From an uncultured Holophagae bacterium (lineage in GTDB: Bacteria; Acidobacteriota; Thermoanaerobaculia; Thermoanaerobaculales; Sulfomarinibacteraceae): a DNA stretch of 64,000 nucleotides. The DNA lies in assembly GCA_963844865.1 (NCBI GenBank), contig CAWJPY010000013.1:135821-199820 (forward strand). Reading direction: 5' to 3'. The position numbers and the translations under genes were made by a program. Each line of letters starts with the position of its first letter. The first letter of the stretch is position 1. The notes beneath the pieces are model-generated. The model made no database searches and had not been told where the DNA came from. It worked only from the letters and a program-made list of their open reading frames with translations. Positions 34,495-61,494 of this stretch are shown piece after piece.

Positions 34495-34694
34495 GTGGGG
34501 AATGAAGAAAGAACGCAGAGGCGCAGAGGCGCAGAGCCACCGCCCACCCCGGAAGAAGACAGAACGCAACGACGCGAAGACGCCAAGGCGCAGGGCCCCC
34601 GCCCGCCCGACAGAAGAACGAAACGCAGAGACGCGGAGGCGCAGAGCCCCCACCCACCGCCTTGGGGTGAGAAGTGAGGAGTGAGGAGTGGGAA
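34495..34694. repeat. Family-C repeat units (34495-34660), followed by heptamer tract GTGAGAA GTGAGGA GTGAGGA GTGGGAA (34667-34694)
   Basis: gaacgcagaggcgcagaggcgcagagcc...cccccgcccgcccgacagaagaacgaaacgcagagacgcggaggcgcagagcccccaccc. Compare 11547-11620. Confidence 0.6.
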
Positions 34695-34746
34695 GATCCC
34701 CCGCCCGCCCCGAGACGTCCGACGACGGCCGGCCGATCCTATTTGG

Positions 34747-51886: not shown

Positions 51887-52241
51887 AGTCGGCCCTCCCG
51901 CCGCGATGATACGCGAGATCGCGAGTGAAATCAGGAGTTAACGGTCACCGACGGGTAATACTTGCAGGGTGAGTGTCGCAGCTCTGTCACGGTGCGACCG
52001 GTTCTCCCGTCGATCCTCCGGAGCCTCCGCACGGCTCGGATGAAGTTGGTACAATTCGCCGGTCGCGAGGTTTGTTGTCCGAGAGGAGAGGCCAGCGACC
52101 GGTCTGCTCACCGCCACGGCGGTGGTGCGGCGACGCGCCGTGCGAGGAGGCCGGGAGGTGCCCCGAGTCCGATGCGCGAGACCCGCGAGGTCGCCTCGCC
52201 GAGCGGGTCGCCGAACTTGACAGAGGGGGGTGCGGAGAGTC

Positions 52242-52901
52242 ATGAACACGGTCGCGGCCTTCTACGAGTCGTCCCTGGGCAAGAAGGTGGTGATGGCGGG
52301 TACCGGCATCATCCTCTTCGCCTACGTGATCGGGCACATGCTCGGCAACCTGCAGATCTACGGACCGCCGGAGCAGATCAACGCCTACGCCACGTTCCTC
52401 CACTCCCACCCCAACCTGCTGTGGATCGTCCGCGCGTTCCTGATCTTCTCGGTGGGGGTGCACATCCTGGCCGCGTTCCAGCTCTGGCTGCGGAACCGCG
52501 GCGGCCGGCCCGTGAAGTACCGCGTGTTCCGGCCGCCGGCGGTGGACTACGCGGCCCGCACCATGGTGTGGAGCGGTCCCATCATCGCGTTCTTCGTCAT
52601 CTTCCACCTGCTGGACCTGACCACGGGCACCGTCAACCCGTCCTATGAGGAGCTGAACGTCTACCACAACGTGATCGCCAGCTTCTCGCGGCCTGTGGTG
52701 GCGGGCTTCTACATCGCCGCCAACTTCCTGCTCGCGGTCCATCTCTACCACGGGCTGTGGAGCCTGTTCCAATCCCTGGGCTGGGACCACCCGCTGCTCG
52801 GACCGTGGCGGCGGCGGCTCGCCGTGGCCGTGTCGGCGCTCATCGGCGCCGGCAACATCTCCATCCCCATCGCGGTGCTGACGGGCATCGTGCATCTCTA
52901 G
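52242..52901 (+). CDS. sdhC: Succinate dehydrogenase/fumarate reductase cytochrome b subunit (b558, type B, 5 TM)
   Basis: 'SSLGKKVVMAGTGIILFAYVIGHMLGNLQIY' and further His-bearing helices. ATG 52242 follows ggagag. Directly precedes sdhA and sdhB. Confidence 0.85.
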   Translation: MNTVAAFYESSLGKKVVMAGTGIILFAYVIGHMLGNLQIYGPPEQINAYATFLHSHPNLLWIVRAFLIFSVGVHILAAFQLWLRNRGGRPVKYRVFRPPAVDYAARTMVWSGPIIAFFVIFHLLDLTTGTVNPSYEELNVYHNVIASFSRPVVAGFYIAANFLLAVHLYHGLWSLFQSLGWDHPLLGPWRRRLAVAVSALIGAGNISIPIAVLTGIVHL

Positions 52902-52913
52902 GAGGTCGCCAAC

Positions 52914-54824
<1,911 letters not shown>

Positions 54825-54828
<4 letters not shown>

Positions 54829-55601
54829 GGTTGACCCTGCACATCTGGCGGCAGAAGGGCCCCGCGGTGGCCGGCGGCTTCAGGACCTACGAGCTGGACG
54901 ACGTGAGCCCCGACATGTCGTTCTTGGAGATGCTCGACGTCCTCAACCAGGAGCTCATCAAGGGCGGCGACGACCCGGTGGCCTTCGAGCACGACTGCCG
55001 GGAGGGCATCTGCGGGAGCTGCGGCTTCGTCATCAACGGCGTCGCCCACGGCGGCCAGCCCGGCACCACCACCTGCGAGCTCTACATGCGGCACTTTAAG
55101 GACGGCGACGAGGTCTTCATCGAGCCGTTCCGGGCCAAGGGCTTCCCGGTGATCAAGGACCTCATCGTGGACCGCTCCGCCTTCGACCGCATCATGCGCG
55201 CCGGCGGCTTCATCTCGGCCCGGGTGGGCAGCGCCCCAGACGCCAACGAGGTCCCCATCCCCAAGGACGAGGCCGAGCTGGCCATGGACTACGCCGAGTG
55301 CATCGGCTGCGGCGCCTGCGTGGCCACCTGCCCCAACGGCGCGGCCATGCTCTTCGTGAGCGCCAAGATCTCCCACCTGGGAATGCTGCCCCAGGGGCAG
55401 CCGGAGCGGGACCGCCGTGCCCGGGCCATGGTCCGCGCCATGGAGCAGGAGGCCTTCGGGGCCTGCACCAACTACCGCTCCTGCGAAGCGGTGTGCCCCA
55501 AGGAGATCTCCATCACCGGCATCGCGCGCATGAACAAGGACTGGCGGCGGGCCATGCTGAAGGGGGACCTGCCGACGTTCGGCAAGCGCCACGCGACGTA
55601 G
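54825..55601 (+). CDS. sdhB: Succinate dehydrogenase/fumarate reductase iron-sulfur subunit
   Basis: '[10 protein letters not shown]', '[12 protein letters not shown]', '[15 protein letters not shown]'. ATGA overlap with sdhA. Confidence 0.92.
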
Positions 55602-55610
55602 GACGTCAAA

Positions 55611-55727
55611 AGTAAGAAGTAAGAAGTAAGAAGTCAGGAGTTCCCCCTCCCGCCCTCACGAGTCGTGGCAGGACCGGCGAGGGTGGGGGGCCTTCTAACT
55701 CCTCACTTCTAACTCCTAACCCCTCAC
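55611..55727. repeat. Inverted arrays of the GTNAGRA heptamer flanking a GC-rich inner palindrome. Large hairpin, possibly a bidirectional terminator.
   Basis: Left arm: (agtaaga)x3 agtcagg agtt. Centre: ccccctcccgccctcacgagtcgtggcaggaccggcgagggtgggggg. Right arm: ttctaac tcctcac ttctaac tcctaac ccctcac. AGAAGTCAGGAGTT pairs with AACTCCTCACTTCT at 13/14. Confidence 0.55.
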
Positions 55728-55747
55728 GGGGTGGGCGGGCGGGGGCT

Positions 55748-55912
55748 TCAGCCGAGCAGCGACGTGATGAGGATGCCGGCGAAGAGGATCACGATGGCGG
55801 CGCCCAGCGCCGCCAGGAAGATCTCGGTCGGGGAGTAGCGTGCGCGCCGCGAGGTGGGGGTGCTCGGGCGTGGAGATTTCGCGGACTTCTTGCGACGTCG
55901 GCTGCGAGCCAT
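55748..55912 (-). CDS. Possible small tail-anchored membrane protein (54 aa)
   Basis: 'MARSRRRKKSAKSPRPSTPTSRRARYSPTEIFLAALGAAIVILFAGILITSLLG' has a basic N-terminus and one TM helix. No homology recognised, so this could be spurious. Confidence 0.3.
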   Translation of the reverse strand: MARSRRRKKSAKSPRPSTPTSRRARYSPTEIFLAALGAAIVILFAGILITSLLG

Positions 55913-56106
55913 GACCCATTGTAGCCTCGGGGGCGGCCGATGCGTCACATCGACGGTCAAAACGGCACACATGGCGGGACCGCCCGGGAGCCCTGACTCC
56001 CGGGACGGCCGCAAAGGTGGGCCAATAGATGTGCTTTATTGGCGGGTAATATAAGGCTGGAGGCGGAGAAAACCCCGCCCCGGCAAGGTGAGGCCGCTTC
56101 CGGTCC

Positions 56107-56135
56107 TTGAAGTCCCGTTGACTTCCTCGTACACT
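56107..56135 (+). promoter_or_regulatory. Candidate sigma70-type promoter TTGAAG-17-TACACT for the SPFH/zinc-ribbon operon
   Basis: TTGAAG at 56107-56112, TACACT at 56130-56135. Followed by a roughly 150-nt comparatively AT-rich leader to ATG 56288. Confidence 0.45.
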
Positions 56136-56287
56136 GACGAGCAGGGTGGTAGGACCCAAAAAAGCATAGCAACCAGGAAGCATGCAATCGACGTGCCAGG
56201 TTGTCGATCCGGAACCAGCCGCCGGGTGTGTCCGTATGAAGCTTCAGGACCACAGGATGTCCACGATTTGAACCAGGGAGGGCGCAA

Positions 56288-56809
56288 ATGAGCCAGGGGA
56301 TCGAGAACGCCGAGCAGCGGCGCAACCTCCTCGAGCGCATCGGGGCCAAGATCCCGGGGATCAAGGGGTACCTGAACCGCGAGCTGCGGCGAGAGGTCGA
56401 CAAGATGCAGCGTGACTGGCTGGCGGAGCAGGTGGACCGGGGCCGGCGATCGCTCCAGGACCACGTGCGGGACTGGTCGCGGGCCGGCAACCTGAGCAAC
56501 CTGGACCTGGCCTCCAGCGTCGACAAGGCCCTGGACCGGTTCGCCAACCGCATCCGGCATGCGGACTACGGGTACACGGGCTTCTTCGACGCGGTCAAGA
56601 TCCGCGAGCCAGAGCTGGACAAGATCTACCAGCACGATCTCGCGCTCATGGACGACGTGGAGGAGCTGGCGGCACGGATCGAGACCCTGCCCAAGACCGC
56701 CACCGAGCCCGCCTTGCGCAACCTGCTGGATGCGGTGGGCGAGGCCGACAGCTCCTTCGACGAGCGGGCGCGCATCTTCGAGGACGTGACCGAGAAGGGA
56801 GGTGCCTGA
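56288..56809 (+). CDS. Hypothetical all-helical protein (173 aa), first gene of the SPFH/zinc-ribbon operon
   Basis: RBS agggaggg 7 nt upstream. Charged, heptad-like sequence ('[32 protein letters not shown]'). TGATG overlap with the next gene. No family recognised. Confidence 0.6.
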
Positions 56810-57882
56810 TGGCACTCACGCTCGAGGTGATCGAGCACTACGACGCAACCGGTGAGGAGATCGTCTACCGCTTTCCTCCCGAGGGCAGCGCCGCCATCAA
56901 GATGGGCGCCCAGCTCCTGGTCCAGGAGGCCCAGGAGGCGGTGTTGTTCCGCGACGGCCGGGCCCTGGACGTGTTCAGCCCCGGGCGGCACGTGCTCACC
57001 ACCCTCAACATGCCGCTGGTAACGTCGCTGCTTTCCCTGCCTTACGGCGGCAAGTCGCCGTTCAGGGTGGCGGTGGTCTACATCAACCGGCGCACCTTCC
57101 TCGACCAGAAGTGGGGGACCAGGGAGCCGGTGGTGTTCCGGGACTCGGAGCTGGGCATGGTCCGGCTGCGCGCCTTCGGCAACTACGCCTACCGCATCGC
57201 CGACAGTCAGCTCTTCGTCAACACCGTGGTCGGCTCCCAGGGCCTGTTCGAGACGGACCGTCTGAAGGACTTCTACCGCGACGTCATCGTGTCGCGCCTC
57301 AACGACCTGCTGGGCGAGACGCTGAAGACCATCTTCGACCTGCCCCGCTACTACGACGAGCTGGCCGCGGCGGCCAAGGCCCGCCTCACCGAGGACTTCG
57401 GCAAGTACGGCGTGGACCTGACCGACTTCTACGTCAACTCCATCACCCCGCCGGACGAGGTCCAGGCCAAGATCGACGAGCGCTCGGCCATGGGCGCCAT
57501 CGGCAACATGAACACCTACATGCAGTTCAAGGCCGCGCAGGCGGTGCAGGACGCCGCCCAGGGCGGGGGCGCCGAGGGCGGCGCGGCGGGCGCTGGCATG
57601 GGTCTGGGGCTGGGCGCCGGCTTCGGGGCCATGATGCCGGGCATGATCGCCCAGTCCATGCAGCAGGCGGCCCAGGGAACCGCGCCGGCTGGAGGCGCGG
57701 CGGCGGGTGCAGCCGCGGCCGGGAGCTTCTGCACGAGCTGTGGTCAGCCCATGCCGGACGGGGCGAAGTTCTGTCCCCATTGCGGCGCCAAGCAGGCCGC
57801 GGCGGGGTGCCCCGGATGCGGGCAGCCGGTGCCCGAGGGGGCGAAGTTCTGCCCGAACTGCGGGGCCAAGCAGGGGGAGTAG
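56809..57882 (+). CDS. SPFH/band-7 domain protein (COG4260, YdjI-like 'virion core protein-like') with C-terminal double zinc ribbon
   Basis: '[49 protein letters not shown]', '[13 protein letters not shown]', Gly/Ala linker, then '[23 protein letters not shown]' and '[23 protein letters not shown]'. Confidence 0.8.
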
Positions 57883-57885
57883 TCC

Positions 57886-58635
57886 TTGCAGGTCCGCTGC
57901 ACCCAGTGCGGAGCCGACATCGAGGTCCGCGCCGACCAGCGGCTCCTGGAGTGCCCGTTTTGCTCCAGCGCCCTGGTGGTGGACGCCGAGGGGACCCTCT
58001 TCGACGAGGTCATGCTGGCCACCGTGCAGCCCGGCGAGGCGCCGGCCCACCTGCGCCGCTTCATGGCCGGGCGGGACACCGTGGCCGATCTGGACAAGGA
58101 AGCGGTGATCGGCGAGCCGACCCTGGAGTACTTCCCGTTCTGGGCCTTCACCGTCGGCGAGGCGGGCGCGGAGAAAGCCGTGCTGCACCCCGCCGCCCCA
58201 TCCTCCCTGCAGGGCCTGCACGGGATGACGCTGCCCGCGGGCACCACCCGGCCCATGAGCCGCGAGGCGGTGGGCGACGCCGTGGTGCGCGATCCCGAGG
58301 TGCCGGCGGCCACCGCGCGGGAGTGGCTGAAGACCAGCGTCGGCGACGCGCCGGTGCGACGCACCGTGCTCTACCACCTTCCCCTGTATCGGCTCTCCTA
58401 CCAGTGGCGGGGACGGACCTACCAGGCAGCGGTGGACGGCGTGTCGGGGAAGGTGTTCCCGGCGGACTTCCCGGCCAAGGCCGAGGCTCCCTACGCCCTG
58501 GTGGCGGTCCTCGCCCTGGTGGTGTTCGGCCTCGAGGGCCTCGTCATCTCCAACCTGCTCCTCAAGGTGGGGGTCTACCTGGTGTCGGCGTTGCCCATCC
58601 TGGGTATCGCCTGGCTGACGACGCGCAGGGTATGA
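57886..58635 (+). CDS. Zinc-ribbon membrane protein (N-terminal CxxC..CxxC, two C-terminal TM helices), paralogue of the next gene
   Basis: TTG start 3 nt after the upstream stop, with gggggag RBS. 'CTQCGADIEVRADQRLLECPFCSS', 'VLYHLPLYRLSYQWRGRTYQAAVDGVSGKV', TM helices 'YALVAVLALVVFGLEGLVI' and 'VGVYLVSALPILGIAWL'. Confidence 0.65.
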   Translation: MQVRCTQCGADIEVRADQRLLECPFCSSALVVDAEGTLFDEVMLATVQPGEAPAHLRRFMAGRDTVADLDKEAVIGEPTLEYFPFWAFTVGEAGAEKAVLHPAAPSSLQGLHGMTLPAGTTRPMSREAVGDAVVRDPEVPAATAREWLKTSVGDAPVRRTVLYHLPLYRLSYQWRGRTYQAAVDGVSGKVFPADFPAKAEAPYALVAVLALVVFGLEGLVISNLLLKVGVYLVSALPILGIAWLTTRRV

Positions 58636-58759
58636 AGGAATTACACGCTTCGGTTCGTGAGTTACAGGCGGGGCGGTTCCCGGTGGCGGCCCGCGGGCTC
58701 CGCCCGGCCCGTCCGCCGGAGCGCGCCGGAGACAGCCTGCCGAGAGCGGGTGAGGCGGC

Positions 58760-59809
58760 ATGAGCAGGCCCCCGCCGCCGCCCCCCAAGCCCAAGGTACT
58801 CACCGGCTTGGGCTGCGCCTCCTGCGGCGGCTCGGTGGAGGTCCAGGAGGGCTGCACCAATCTGGTCTGCCGGTACTGCGGCACGCCCTTGGCGGTCGTG
58901 GGTGACCGTGGCGTGCTCCACCTCATGGTCCTGGACCGCGTCGATCGGGAGCGGGCGGCGCGCACCGTCCACGACTGGTTCCGCAAGGGCATCCGCAAGG
59001 CGCCGGCGCTGAAGCGCGAGGCGCACTACGAGGAGGCCTTCTTGGCCTGGTTTCCCTTCGTGCGGGCGCGCCTGGACGTGGTGGGCTGGGTGCTGGGCTA
59101 CGAGGAGCGGCGGCGCAAGCGCGGCAACCGCTGGGTCACCGTACGCCGGCCGGTGGAGACCCAGGTGGAGCGGGCCGTGGACCGCACCATGCCGTCGGCC
59201 GACATGGCGGAGTTCGGGGTCAGTCACGTCAACCTGGCCGGCGACGAGGTCGTGGCCCTGAACGAGGATCTGCTGCGCTCCCGCGGCATGGTCTTCAGGC
59301 CCCAGCTCGCGCCCGCCGAGGTGGCCGCCAAGCTGGAGAAGCTGGCCCTGACCGACATCGAGGTCTCCTCCCGTCCCGACCACGTCAACTTCTCCTGGCT
59401 GGCGGGCGTGCGGCGCCGGGTGTCGGTGGTGTTCTACCCCCTGTGGGTGATCCGCTACAGCTTCCGGGGCCAGACCTACCAGGCCCTCATCGATGCCGAG
59501 GACGGCGGCCTGGCGTACGGCAAGGCGCCGGGCAACCACCTGTGGCGGGCCTTCTCCCTGGTCTCGGCCGCCGCCGGGGCCTGCTTCGTGGGCACCACCG
59601 TGCTCCAGCACATCAACGTCTTCGCGCGCGGCAACAACGGGCTCGCCGCCCTGGGTATCATCGGCCTGATCCTGGCCGGCCTCGTGGGCTGGGGCTACAC
59701 GCAGTTCCGGCGCGGTGGGGTGGTGGAGGAGGGCAGCGGCCGGCCGACGGGGGCCGACGCAGACTCCCTGACGTCCACCGTCAAGCGGATGATGGAGGAG
59801 CTGCAGTGA
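58760..59809 (+). CDS. Zinc-ribbon membrane protein (N-terminal CxxC..CxxC, two C-terminal TM helices)
   Basis: 'GCASCGGSVEVQEGCTNLVCRYCGT', 'VVFYPLWVIRYSFRGQTYQALIDAEDGG', TM helices 'FSLVSAAAGACFVGTTVL' and 'LAALGIIGLILAGLVGWG'. Confidence 0.65.
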   Translation: MSRPPPPPPKPKVLTGLGCASCGGSVEVQEGCTNLVCRYCGTPLAVVGDRGVLHLMVLDRVDRERAARTVHDWFRKGIRKAPALKREAHYEEAFLAWFPFVRARLDVVGWVLGYEERRRKRGNRWVTVRRPVETQVERAVDRTMPSADMAEFGVSHVNLAGDEVVALNEDLLRSRGMVFRPQLAPAEVAAKLEKLALTDIEVSSRPDHVNFSWLAGVRRRVSVVFYPLWVIRYSFRGQTYQALIDAEDGGLAYGKAPGNHLWRAFSLVSAAAGACFVGTTVLQHINVFARGNNGLAALGIIGLILAGLVGWGYTQFRRGGVVEEGSGRPTGADADSLTSTVKRMMEELQ

Positions 59810-60393
59810 GCCTCAGGCTCATCGCCCTGGACTGCCCGGCCTGCGGCTCGGCCATGGCGGGCGCCCCCCAGGACATGCTCTACTTCTGCCCCCACTGCGG
59901 CTCCGGCGCCACTCTCGGCAAGGACGGTCTCGAGACCGTGGAGTCAACCGCCCTCCTGGCCGCGCCCGGCCGCCACCCCACGACGTGGCGCCCGGCCTGG
60001 CTGATCACCGCCGACGTGGTGGTGGACCAGCGGATCCGCGCCGACGGCCGGCAGACCGAGGGCTCCCGCGGCGCCCGCACCTTCGTGGTCCCGGCCTTCG
60101 ACCTGCCCCTGGCCGACCTGGTGGAGCTCTCCCGGGCGCTGGCCGAGGGTGCAGCGACGGCGGCCGAGGTCCCCCACGAGGCGATCCGCGGGGGCACCCT
60201 GTCGCTGGCAGACGCCCTGACCCTGGTCCGCCACGTGGTGGTGGGGGACGAGGTGCGCAAGCCCGACATGCTGGCCTCGGTCCAGGTGGAGGTCACGGAG
60301 ACCGGCCACCGCCTCGCGGCCATCCCCTTCGAGGAGCTGCCCGACGGCCGCCTGCGCTGCGCCGTCACCGGCGTCACCATCCGGGCCCAGTGA
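59806..60393 (+). CDS. Soluble zinc-ribbon protein (195 aa), last gene of the operon
   Basis: GTG start in a GTGA overlap with the upstream stop. 'LDCPACGSAMAGAPQDMLYFCPHCGS'. No TM helix. Confidence 0.55.
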   Translation: MSLRLIALDCPACGSAMAGAPQDMLYFCPHCGSGATLGKDGLETVESTALLAAPGRHPTTWRPAWLITADVVVDQRIRADGRQTEGSRGARTFVVPAFDLPLADLVELSRALAEGAATAAEVPHEAIRGGTLSLADALTLVRHVVVGDEVRKPDMLASVQVEVTETGHRLAAIPFEELPDGRLRCAVTGVTIRAQ

Positions 60394-60492
60394 TCAGCCT
60401 CCGCGGCAGCGACCGTGGGCAGGGACCGTGATCGGCAATCCGCGGCGGCCCTCCGCGTCAGGGTTCAGCGCCAACAATCAGCGGCAGCGATC
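60394..60492. repeat. Family-D micro-repeat tract replacing the 5' half of the RAYT gene
   Basis: gatcagcctccgcggcagcgaccgtgggcagggaccgtgatcggcaatccgcgg...caatcagcggcagcgatccgcgg. Confidence 0.5.
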
Positions 60493-61186
60493 CGCGGGCC
60501 CCCTGTGGCAGAGCAGGTACAAGGCGCGGCTGGTCGAGGACTCGCGGTACCTGGAGCAGCTGGTCGCGTACATCCACCTCATCCCGGTGGTGGCCAAGGT
60601 CGTGGACGACCCGGCTGGCTATCCCCACTGCGGGCACCTCGAGCTGATCAAGAAGACGGCGGAGCCGCTGGTTGACAGGGACGAGACGCTGGGGATGTAC
60701 GGGGACGCCCAGCAAAGCGCTCGGCGCCAGTATGTTCGAGCGCTGCAGGGTGCGCGCACAGCCGAGTGGAGAGAGGCCCTGCCGGGCAGGCTTCCGTGGT
60801 GGAAGCACGAGGCGGACCGACCCCTCGATGTGAGGGCGCCGGACGCGTGGGTGGACGAGCAAGGGGTGAGTACAGGCAGAGAGAGGGCGGAGTTGTCGGC
60901 CCGGGATTTTGTCGCGCTGGCGTGCCGTGCCCTGGAGGCAGACGTCGGAGAGCTTCAGGGAAACGGGTACGGGCGCCGGGCTTCGCGGCAGCGGATCCTC
61001 CTGGCAGCGGTGGGAGTGGAGCGCTGGCGGCAGAGTGCGCGGGAGCTGGGGAGGATCCTCGGTCGACGCGGCGACGTGATCTCGCGGTGGGTGCGCTGGG
61101 GAGCTGCACGGAGGCAGACGTATGCGGATTTTGCGGACGCCTACGACGAACTGGATCGCGAGCTCAGCACGATGGTCGGCTCCTAG
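60428..61186 (+). mobile_element. 5'-truncated REP-associated tyrosine transposase (RAYT, IS200-like Y1 family) with DnaA-C-like HTH tail. Remnant or pseudogene.
   Basis: Homology begins at 'GPLWQSRYKARLVEDSRYLEQLVAYIHLIPVVAKVVDDPAGYP' (the catalytic-Tyr block G-x-[LF]-[WF]-Q-x-RY...YIHxNPV). The HUH-containing N-terminal half, about 110 aa, is absent. The first roughly 22 codons of the ORF are translated repeat DNA. Confidence 0.6.
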
Positions 61187-61213: not shown

Positions 61214-61235
61214 TGGCACCTATATGGCACCTATA
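61214..61235 (+). promoter_or_regulatory. 11-nt direct repeat TGGCACCTATA x2. It reads as a sigma54-like -24/-12 element TGGCAC-N5-TGGCA.
   Basis: tggcacctata tggcacctata gg, about 260 nt upstream of the TolC-like gene. Consensus is TGGCAC-N5-TTGCW (one mismatch in the -12 box). Preceded by aaagtgtc aaaagtgtc. Confidence 0.3.
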
Positions 61236-61494
61236 GGTAGTGTCCGAGCAGGCGCTGGAGCGGCGCCAGAAAACTCTGTGGAGATCTGGAAGACTAGGGT
61301 CGGCCTCAAGCGTTGCCGAGTGCACTCGTGACGGTGCCGCGGTGCGCCCGCCGGTCTCGCAGGCGCCTTGCACATCGGCGGCGGAGATGGCAGGCTGTCA
61401 CGGCAAGCCGAATCCTCCCGAGGTGAGATTCCACGGGAGGCACAACGTACGATCCAGCCGCAGCAGCGCGGTGACCAGGCCTGACGGAGGCTTC

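Follow-up and report, generated by a model that had tools for sequence, protein, structure and literature searches.

SPFH proteins of the Band_7_1 type, such as YdjI/SamI, are common in bacteria. To our knowledge, Bacillus offers the only example that has been studied, and there the protein is tied to PspA. YdjI/SamI of Bacillus subtilis is a soluble SPFH protein with a low-complexity linker and a C-terminal zinc finger, and it depends on two membrane proteins, YdjG/SamG and YdjH/SamH, for its recruitment to the membrane (Scholz et al. 2021, PMC8581546; Baur et al. 2026, bioRxiv 10.64898/2026.02.06.704340). It is required for the localisation of PspA and restrains SamGH signalling (PMC8581546; bioRxiv 10.64898/2026.02.06.704340). 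A second described setting is the proteobacterial Band-7/SHOCT-DUF350-DUF4178-SpeD operon, for which Ravi et al. reported that a band-7 protein replaces the CesT/Tir-PspA pair (PMC11237479). Here we analysed a five-gene operon (G1 to G5, Table 1) of an uncultured Holophagae bacterium, located in a window of 64,000 nt, which is the whole stretch of DNA under analysis (positions 135,821 to 199,820 of contig CAWJPY010000013.1, assembly GCA_963844865.1). G2 encodes an SPFH protein, G3 to G5 encode zinc-ribbon proteins and G1 encodes a helical protein. The locus is probably related to the sub-membrane SPFH system of Bacillus, SamI/SamG (YdjI/YdjG), but independent of PspA.

In a Pfam scan, G2 matched Band_7_1 (PF13421) with an E-value of 3e-60, and its C-terminus matched DZR (5.5e-12) and Zn_Ribbon_1 (6e-16). 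The two ribbons each have the form CxxC-x10-CxxC, with CxxC motifs at residues 308, 322, 334 and 348 (span 308-351), and the orthologues of G2 carry four to six CxxC motifs within their final 90 residues. A hydropathy scan found no hydrophobic or transmembrane (TM) segment in the protein, and no relative of it was found in the Protein Data Bank (PDB) at E<=0.01. A first-pass annotation, made from the DNA letters alone, had described gene 2 as a TM-less SPFH protein with a Gly/Ala linker and two ribbons, and these results bear that description out. The domain architecture of G2 is that of B. subtilis YdjI/SamI. Classical SPFH systems (HflK/C-FtsH, QmcA-YbbJ/NfeD and the flotillins) share the SPFH domain with G2 and, like it, probably form oligomeric scaffolds at the membrane, but G2 has no TM anchor, no detected long coiled-coil wall region and no NfeD partner.

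The proteins encoded by G3, G4 and G5 all begin with a CxxC-x14-CxxC ribbon, noted at the first pass as CxxC-x14-16-CxxC, and the ribbon cysteines (C5, C8, C23 and C26 in G3) are invariant among full-length orthologues. The proposed paralogy of G3 and G4 was confirmed by BLASTP (E 3e-8) and by hhalign (99.5%). In G4 the ribbon is followed by a complete cytosolic domain, a pair of TM helices and a short tail, and the hydropathy scan placed its two C-terminal hydrophobic segments at residues 264-282 and 291-314. Two C-terminal TM helices had been claimed for both paralogues; in G3, hydropathy gave a single 34-residue hydrophobic block, which was divided into two helices in the AlphaFold2 (AF2) model only. 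This model (pLDDT 70.7) comprised the ribbon, two helix-plus-beta-hairpin units and a C-terminal helical hairpin. The bulk of G3 is predicted to be cytoplasmic, given its N-terminal zinc ribbon and the absence of a signal peptide. A Foldseek search with the G3 model returned no significant fold match in the PDB; YpeB (5boi) and a PepSY-like lipoprotein (4exr) ranked second and third, neither of them significantly.

Relatives of G3 and G4 were found by searching with G2 (tblastn) for Band_7_1 genes on large replicons and inspecting the genes downstream. In Vibrio coralliilyticus, the gene directly 3' of the SPFH gene encodes two ribbons, a domain and a TM segment, and it matched the G3/G4 profiles at ~1e-18. 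The same YdjG-like family also follows SPFH genes in Paracoccus, Pseudorhodobacter, Comamonas (where the member is annotated as a TFIIB-type zinc ribbon), Tsukamurella and Enterococcus. The order in Enterococcus gallinarum is an SPFH gene (two C-terminal ribbons), a YdjG-like gene and a gene for a TPM-domain protein, which corresponds to the SamI/SamG/SamH set. The Enterococcus YdjG-like protein begins with MDVITHKCPNC, to be compared with the MIISYKCPNC encoded by the B. subtilis ydjG primer (PMC8581546). An alignment of the YdjG-like proteins (A7), including those of this Enterococcus operon, was compared with the alignment of G3 (A3) and with G4. In hhalign, A3 matched A7 with a probability of 96.6% (E 5e-10, 89 columns) and G4 matched it with a probability of 98.1% (E 9e-14, 226 columns). 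The G3 hidden Markov model also matched the Vibrio partner at 2e-19 and the Enterococcus partner at 7e-15. Moreover, Ravi et al. described YdjG as combining zinc ribbons with a YpeB-related domain and a TM segment (PMC11237479), and this description fits the G3 model. These comparisons identify G3 and G4 as divergent members of the YdjG/SamG family.

The likeness to pspA-ydjGHI that had been noted at the first pass is therefore one of homology and not just of analogy. The suggestion of an entirely undescribed system did not hold, since the core formed by the SPFH protein and its ribbon-bearing membrane partner is the already described SamI/SamG pair, which is also present in Bacillota, Actinomycetota and Pseudomonadota. 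Like the PspA-YdjGHI/SamGHI operon, this locus encodes a Band_7_1 SPFH protein that lacks TM segments and bears a low-complexity linker and C-terminal ribbons, together with a YdjG/SamG-family partner (N-terminal ribbon, alpha/beta domain and TM segment) in the same operon. Unlike it, the locus has neither PspA nor the TPM protein YdjH/SamH. No match to PspA (PF04012) was found in G1 to G5, and none to TPM_phosphatase at E<=1; likewise, no TPM family was recorded among the called genes flanking the loci L001 and L004. The YdjG-like partner is here duplicated, with one ribbon instead of two and with a two-helix C-terminal hairpin. In addition, the soluble ribbon protein G5 has been added, the helical G1 precedes the SPFH gene and the gene order is changed.

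As first claimed, G5 is soluble, since it has no hydrophobic segment. Its likeness to G3, G4 and the YdjG-like proteins is limited to the ribbon and possibly the first strand; a reading of G5 as a full YdjG paralogue was rejected because the alignment covers the ribbon alone. G5 co-occurs with G3 and G4 without exception in the orthologous loci. At locus L015 (11036-13333, minus strand), a single TM-anchored polypeptide, encoded convergently to the local G1-G2 genes, combines N-terminal TM helices, a ribbon with a G3/G4-like domain and a second ribbon with a G5-like domain. This gene is a natural fusion of the accessory proteins, and G5 is probably an accessory subunit of the G3/G4 block.

G1 occupies the position that pspA holds in Bacillus and was described at the first pass as an all-helical protein unrelated to PspA that could not be placed, and this characterisation stood. 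When G1 and 68 relatives were scanned singly, no Pfam family recurred and only scattered coiled-coil noise was seen; a reading of G1 as LemA, TelA, PhoU or another known helical family was rejected on this ground. The sole curated model to recognise G1 was NCBIfam NF047596 (LIMLP_15305, Leptospira), of the same length class, which matched residues 35-164 with an E-value of 2.7e-11. With 43.6 bits against an equivalog cutoff of 210, this match falls far short, which makes G1 a distant relative within this superfamily and not an equivalog. The Leptospira literature on LIMLP_15305 was uninformative, and the family has no assigned function. An exhaustive search placed 1138 clusters (50% identity level) in the G1 family at E<=1e-3 and 556 at E<=1e-10. 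Most members are 160-180 aa long, and they share two conserved loop motifs, IPGFxGY..RE.RRE.DK and YGYSGFFD.VK. The AF2 model of G1, built from a 69-sequence alignment, was a compact all-helical bundle (pLDDT 90.9, pTM 0.85) with a longest helix of 35 residues. Some homologues carry a C-terminal TM anchor, Pro/Ala-rich tails or an N-terminal ribbon; the TM anchors and ribbons place the G1 family at the membrane face.

The question raised at the first pass, namely whether gene 1 has a PspA/ESCRT-III-like or any other known fold, was answered in the negative on both counts by profile and PDB searches. A sequence-profile search found no relative of G1 in the PDB, and its matches at E<=10 included no PspA, Vipp1 or ESCRT-III chain. 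With the G1 model, the best Foldseek hit in the PDB had an E-value of only 0.019, and no PspA, Vipp1 or ESCRT-III chain was among the top 50. In addition, none of the 69 family members matched PspA_IM30 (PF04012) or Snf7 at E<=1. An assignment of G1 to PspA/ESCRT-III was rejected because there was neither a profile nor a fold match and because the compact bundle differs from the extended alpha1-alpha2 hairpin. G1 could still replace PspA in function, as a membrane-acting effector that attaches to damaged membrane and seals it, with the SPFH protein as its recruiter in the way that YdjI serves PspA. Its first-gene position, its helical and soluble nature, the C-terminal TM anchors of some homologues and the invariant Arg, Tyr and Phe residues of the two conserved loops, which could form a lipid-binding patch, would agree with such a role. 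However, the missing PspA_IM30, Snf7 and PDB matches speak against it, as does a modelled bundle that is not an extended hairpin fit for polymerisation, and we regard this replacement as rather unlikely.

The gene neighbourhood of G1 was examined in 80 loci fetched from species-representative genomes and anchored on G1. They came from Thermoanaerobaculia/Holophagae, Blastocatellia/Pyrinomonadaceae, Planctomycetota and some metagenome-assembled genomes labelled Clostridia. A Band_7_1 SPFH gene lay downstream of G1 on the same strand in 53 of the 55 loci with at least 3.5 kb of downstream sequence, a coupling that spans Acidobacteriota and Planctomycetota, and the two genes often share overlapping stop and start codons. 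In the two exceptions, an N-terminal zinc ribbon is fused to the G1 domain. Such fusions, built as a DZR-type zinc ribbon, a low-complexity linker and the G1 domain, occur in L030 (7356-8510), L041 (7743-8513), L057, L037, L038 and P0265, with no SPFH gene adjoining. Three distant metagenomic relatives of G1 (30-35% identity) also lie directly upstream of Band_7_1 genes, whose products end in DZR, SHOCT and nothing, respectively. The variation of these tails indicates that G1 is coupled to the SPFH domain rather than to the ribbons. G3 to G5, on the other hand, are confined to the close Thermoanaerobaculia/Holophagae lineage plus L068. The synteny that the first pass had asked to be checked for the whole operon was thus kept widely for G1 and the SPFH gene but proved lineage-limited for G3 to G5. 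The conserved unit is the G1-SPFH pair, and G3 to G5 are a lineage-restricted accessory block that is missing from most G1-SPFH loci. Neither the G1 family nor its near-obligate pairing with Band_7_1 SPFH proteins appears to have been described, as no Pfam model exists and literature searches gave no result.

Other lineages have other partners. In most Blastocatellia/Pyrinomonadaceae loci, a gene for a zinc ribbon (ZnR)-Toastrack protein (LiaG-like; LiaG-family E 9e-10) lies between the G1 and SPFH genes. Toastrack proteins such as LiaG and YvlB are hallmark partners of envelope-stress systems of the phage shock protein (PSP) type, and this insertion ties the G1-SPFH pair to PSP/Lia-type envelope-stress modules. 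The window itself has no Toastrack domain, so that its link to the Lia/PSP systems runs via orthologous context only. In L025 (9680-10246), L035, L062 and L066, a membrane-anchored thioredoxin/AhpC-like gene follows the SPFH gene in place of the ribbon proteins. In Ralstonia (L087), the gene after a Band_7_1-SHOCT gene encodes a ZnR-DUF4178-TM protein whose ribbons are similar; both lie within a DUF350/SpeD operon, a context described by Ravi et al. (PMC11237479). This operon resembles the present one in having a Band_7_1 SPFH gene followed by a gene for a membrane protein with an N-terminal ribbon, but it differs in the DUF4178 middle domain, the SHOCT end, the polyamine genes and DUF350, and the absence of G1. 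The only feature common to the variable partners (YdjG-like, ZnR-Toastrack and ZnR-DUF4178) is the N-terminal zinc ribbon, and these ribbons are the most likely docking modules.

The region upstream of G1 was reinterpreted. When it was aligned across orthologous loci, it proved more strongly conserved than anticipated. The first-pass annotation had proposed a good sigma-70 promoter, TTGAAG-17-TACACT. These hexamers (56107-56112 and 56130-56135) match only 8 of 12 consensus positions and were not called by a promoter scan. Both lie within hairpin stems that covary in the orthologous loci, where the hexamer sequences are lost, and the sigma-70 promoter was rejected. The lower-GC leader that had been postulated with it was seen as a dip in GC content (0.57-0.61 across 56000-56299, against 0.64-0.79 inside the genes), but the region is better explained by a divergent sigma-54-driven structured RNA and an extracytoplasmic function (ECF)-type promoter.

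The candidate ECF-type promoter, GGAAC-N17-CGTAT, had a single match in the window, where 0.06 were expected. In most close loci it precedes the G1 ATG by ~77-92 nt (77 nt in the window). The motif resembles ECF-sigma promoters such as TGAAAC-N16-CGTA, which sigma-W recognises. The pspA-ydjGHI operon of B. subtilis is sigma-W dependent (PMC8581546), and the present operon may likewise have an envelope-stress promoter of ECF type. We infer the ECF-type assignment from the known consensus, and GGAAC-N17-CGTAT is a better candidate for the operon promoter than the rejected hexamers.

A perfect sigma-54 promoter motif, an exact match to TGGCAC-N5-TTGCW, is directed away from G1. All 20 close loci had the motif, at about -90 relative to the G1 ATG (between -89 and -140), whereas the 64 distant loci gave just one weak 9/12 match, in L030. 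No GAFTGA motif of a sigma-54 activator was found in the window or the close loci. Downstream of this promoter lies a conserved structured RNA with several hairpins and two CCCACCU(U) motifs; the two stems that hold the rejected hexamers are among these hairpins. On a 16-sequence alignment, 81% of the cells were paired, compared with 36-51% in slid controls, and 24 pairs were changed on both sides, compared with 9-13 in the controls; none of 500 shuffles reached the observed values. There were 54 G-U pairs against 25 A-C pairs, an excess that speaks for the RNA being on the minus strand. A small-ORF (open reading frame) reading of this conserved block was rejected, since conservation extends to the nucleotides and base pairs but not to the reading frame. 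Rfam gave no match within 55950-56290 at E<=10. When metagenome contigs were scanned for the core RNA motif, a divergent G1 gene lay alongside in 14 of 16; one of the other two contigs ends just past the motif, and no G1 was detected on the other, which is 1 kb long. In the close lineage, the structured RNA is always divergent from G1. It is a possible new acidobacterial small RNA.

If the operon is indeed a PspA-independent relative of the SamI/SamG system, G3 and G4, aided by the soluble G5, would bring the SPFH oligomer to the inner membrane face, in the way that SamI is recruited by SamG/SamH. The N-terminal zinc ribbons of the variable partners would serve as docking modules for the SPFH scaffold. 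G1 would be a stoichiometric partner of the SPFH domain and, instead of polymerising like ESCRT-III, would serve as an adaptor or regulator that controls how the scaffold assembles, how it attaches to the membrane or what its output is. The operon would be turned on by an envelope-stress sigma factor of ECF type, and the system may monitor or stabilise the cytoplasmic membrane under stress. Several points weigh against this reading. The TPM protein YdjH/SamH, which was proposed as the direct anchor and signalling subunit in Bacillus, is missing here, and the Bacillus mechanism may therefore not transfer. Many G1-SPFH pairs lack a nearby gene for a membrane partner, so that the core mechanism cannot lie in recruitment by G3/G4. 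Gene linkage is the basis of the role proposed for G1, and the promoter was assigned from a consensus motif. The link to YdjG runs via the Enterococcus proxy, the KCPNC N-terminus and the published domain description. Finally, the confidence of the G3 model is moderate, and its YpeB/PepSY fold matches were not significant.

A broader version is more tentative, and we put it forward as a possibility. The G1 family would be a dedicated partner of TM-less Band_7_1 SPFH proteins, and the pair would form a self-standing, PspA-independent membrane-stress module, into which ribbon-bearing membrane proteins (YdjG-like, Toastrack or DUF4178) plug via their zinc ribbons. In the present lineage, this module would also be paired with the divergent sigma-54-dependent structured RNA as a two-promoter stress switch.

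The SPFH scaffold may instead serve the assembly or quality control of a membrane complex, in the manner of prohibitins or HflK/C, the candidates being succinate dehydrogenase and a membrane protease. Known roles of SPFH proteins include regulating FtsH and scaffolding respiratory complexes. The sdhCAB genes lie immediately upstream of the operon in the window and neighbour it in 12 of the 20 close loci, and an M48 peptidase gene is located upstream in L004. However, the sdh neighbourhood is restricted to one sublineage, being missing at L004, L007, L008, L016-L019 and all distant loci. Moreover, sdhCAB is set apart from the operon by a terminator-like hairpin, a small gene and the divergent sigma-54 promoter, and no protease gene is consistently linked to the operon. 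A functional link to sdhCAB was rejected as lineage-local synteny, and a role in complex assembly is unlikely. An anti-phage, abortive-infection-type membrane system, which the first-pass annotation had kept open, is highly improbable: SPFH and zinc-ribbon proteins do occur in some defence islands, a homologous SPFH and YdjG-like pair stands beside TIR-domain and TRAF-binding-domain genes on a Vibrio coralliilyticus plasmid and a RAYT-like fragment lies just downstream in the window, but PADLOC gave no match for G1 to G5 or the downstream ORF at E<=1, the operon proteins have no nuclease, NTPase or other effector domain, and the locus is conserved vertically at ~65-95% identity in stable core-genome contexts, beside sdhCAB in many close loci, and is not patchy like mobile defence islands.

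The five ORFs were confirmed where the first-pass annotation had placed them. The G1/G2 junction (TGATG, a 1-nt overlap), the 3-nt G2-G3 spacing and the GTGA overlap of G4 and G5 were likewise as reported, while the G3-G4 spacing is 124 nt and not 125. Many orthologues with 60-95% identity exist for all five genes, which are therefore real; G1 and G3 have hundreds of metagenomic homologues apiece (65-95% identity), and the identical five-gene order was found again in orthologous contigs. The long minus-strand ORFs over the operon region are high-GC artefacts.

Table 1. Features of the operon and its surroundings; positions are those of the window unless a locus is named
Feature	Position	Strand	Description
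sdhCAB	52230-55601		Upstream of operon
Imperfect hairpin	55608-55730		Long; between sdhB and 54-aa ORF
54-aa ORF	55748-55912	-	Small gene upstream of G1
Conserved structured noncoding RNA	55950..56172 (ends approximate)	-	~220 nt; downstream of sigma-54 promoter
Perfect sigma-54 promoter motif	56183..56198	-	TGGCACGTCGATTGCA
Candidate ECF-type operon promoter	56211..56237	+	GGAAC-N17-CGTAT; leader would be ~45 nt
G1	56288..56809	+	173 aa; soluble helical-bundle protein (modelled); first gene of operon
G2	56809..57882	+	SPFH (Band_7_1) without TM; Gly/Ala/Met-rich linker; two C-terminal zinc ribbons
G3	57886..58635	+	TTG start; short protein; YdjG/SamG family
G4	58760..59809	+	Longer paralogue; YdjG/SamG family
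G5	59806..60393	+	GTG start; 195 aa; N-terminal zinc ribbon and unassigned ~150-aa domain
ORF after G5	60428-61183	+	Probable RAYT remnant
Sigma-54-like motif	61214-61229	+	TGGCACCTATATGGCA; one mismatch
ZnR-Toastrack/DUF4097 gene	L021 8603-9796		398 aa; in most Blastocatellia/Pyrinomonadaceae loci L021-L084

Some further observations concern the flanks of the operon. The product of the 54-aa ORF (MARSRRRKKS...AALGAAIVILFAGILITSLLG) is very basic at its N-terminus, has a C-terminal TM helix and gave no family match. The ORF is conserved near G1 in all close loci, but its orientation flips between loci. As the sigma-54 promoter and the RNA stay put, the promoter is unlikely to drive this ORF as a general rule. 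The long imperfect hairpin contains the short repeats GAGGAGTTAGAAG and their complement CTTCTTACTTCTTAC. Similar repeats occur at 669-695 and 34676-34695, giving 7 matches in the window against 0.42 expected; they may be elements similar to repetitive extragenic palindromic (REP) sequences or a bidirectional terminator. Directly after G5, the predicted ORF product matches just the C-terminal third of the REP-associated tyrosine transposase (RAYT) model (NF047646, E 3e-8), and the ORF is probably a RAYT remnant that marks a variable region. The sigma-54-like motif beyond it lies directly upstream of an ORF starting at 61240. On the Vibrio coralliilyticus plasmid (L086, NZ_CP048695.1, 1-7121), the Band_7_1 SPFH protein ends in GYF_2, and the TIR and TRAFs-binding-domain genes beside the pair are divergently transcribed; this setting may be a defence-island context.

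In this locus, the core formed by the SPFH and YdjG-like proteins occurs with neither PspA nor the TPM protein. The locus also draws attention to a large unnamed helical family whose genetic tie to the SPFH domain holds across phyla, and G1 offers a concrete candidate, open to experimental test, for the means by which soluble SPFH scaffolds are regulated or fixed to the membrane. We further suggest that very different partners share the N-terminal zinc ribbons as a docking device. Finally, the sigma-54-driven structured RNA could merit study as a possible new acidobacterial small RNA.

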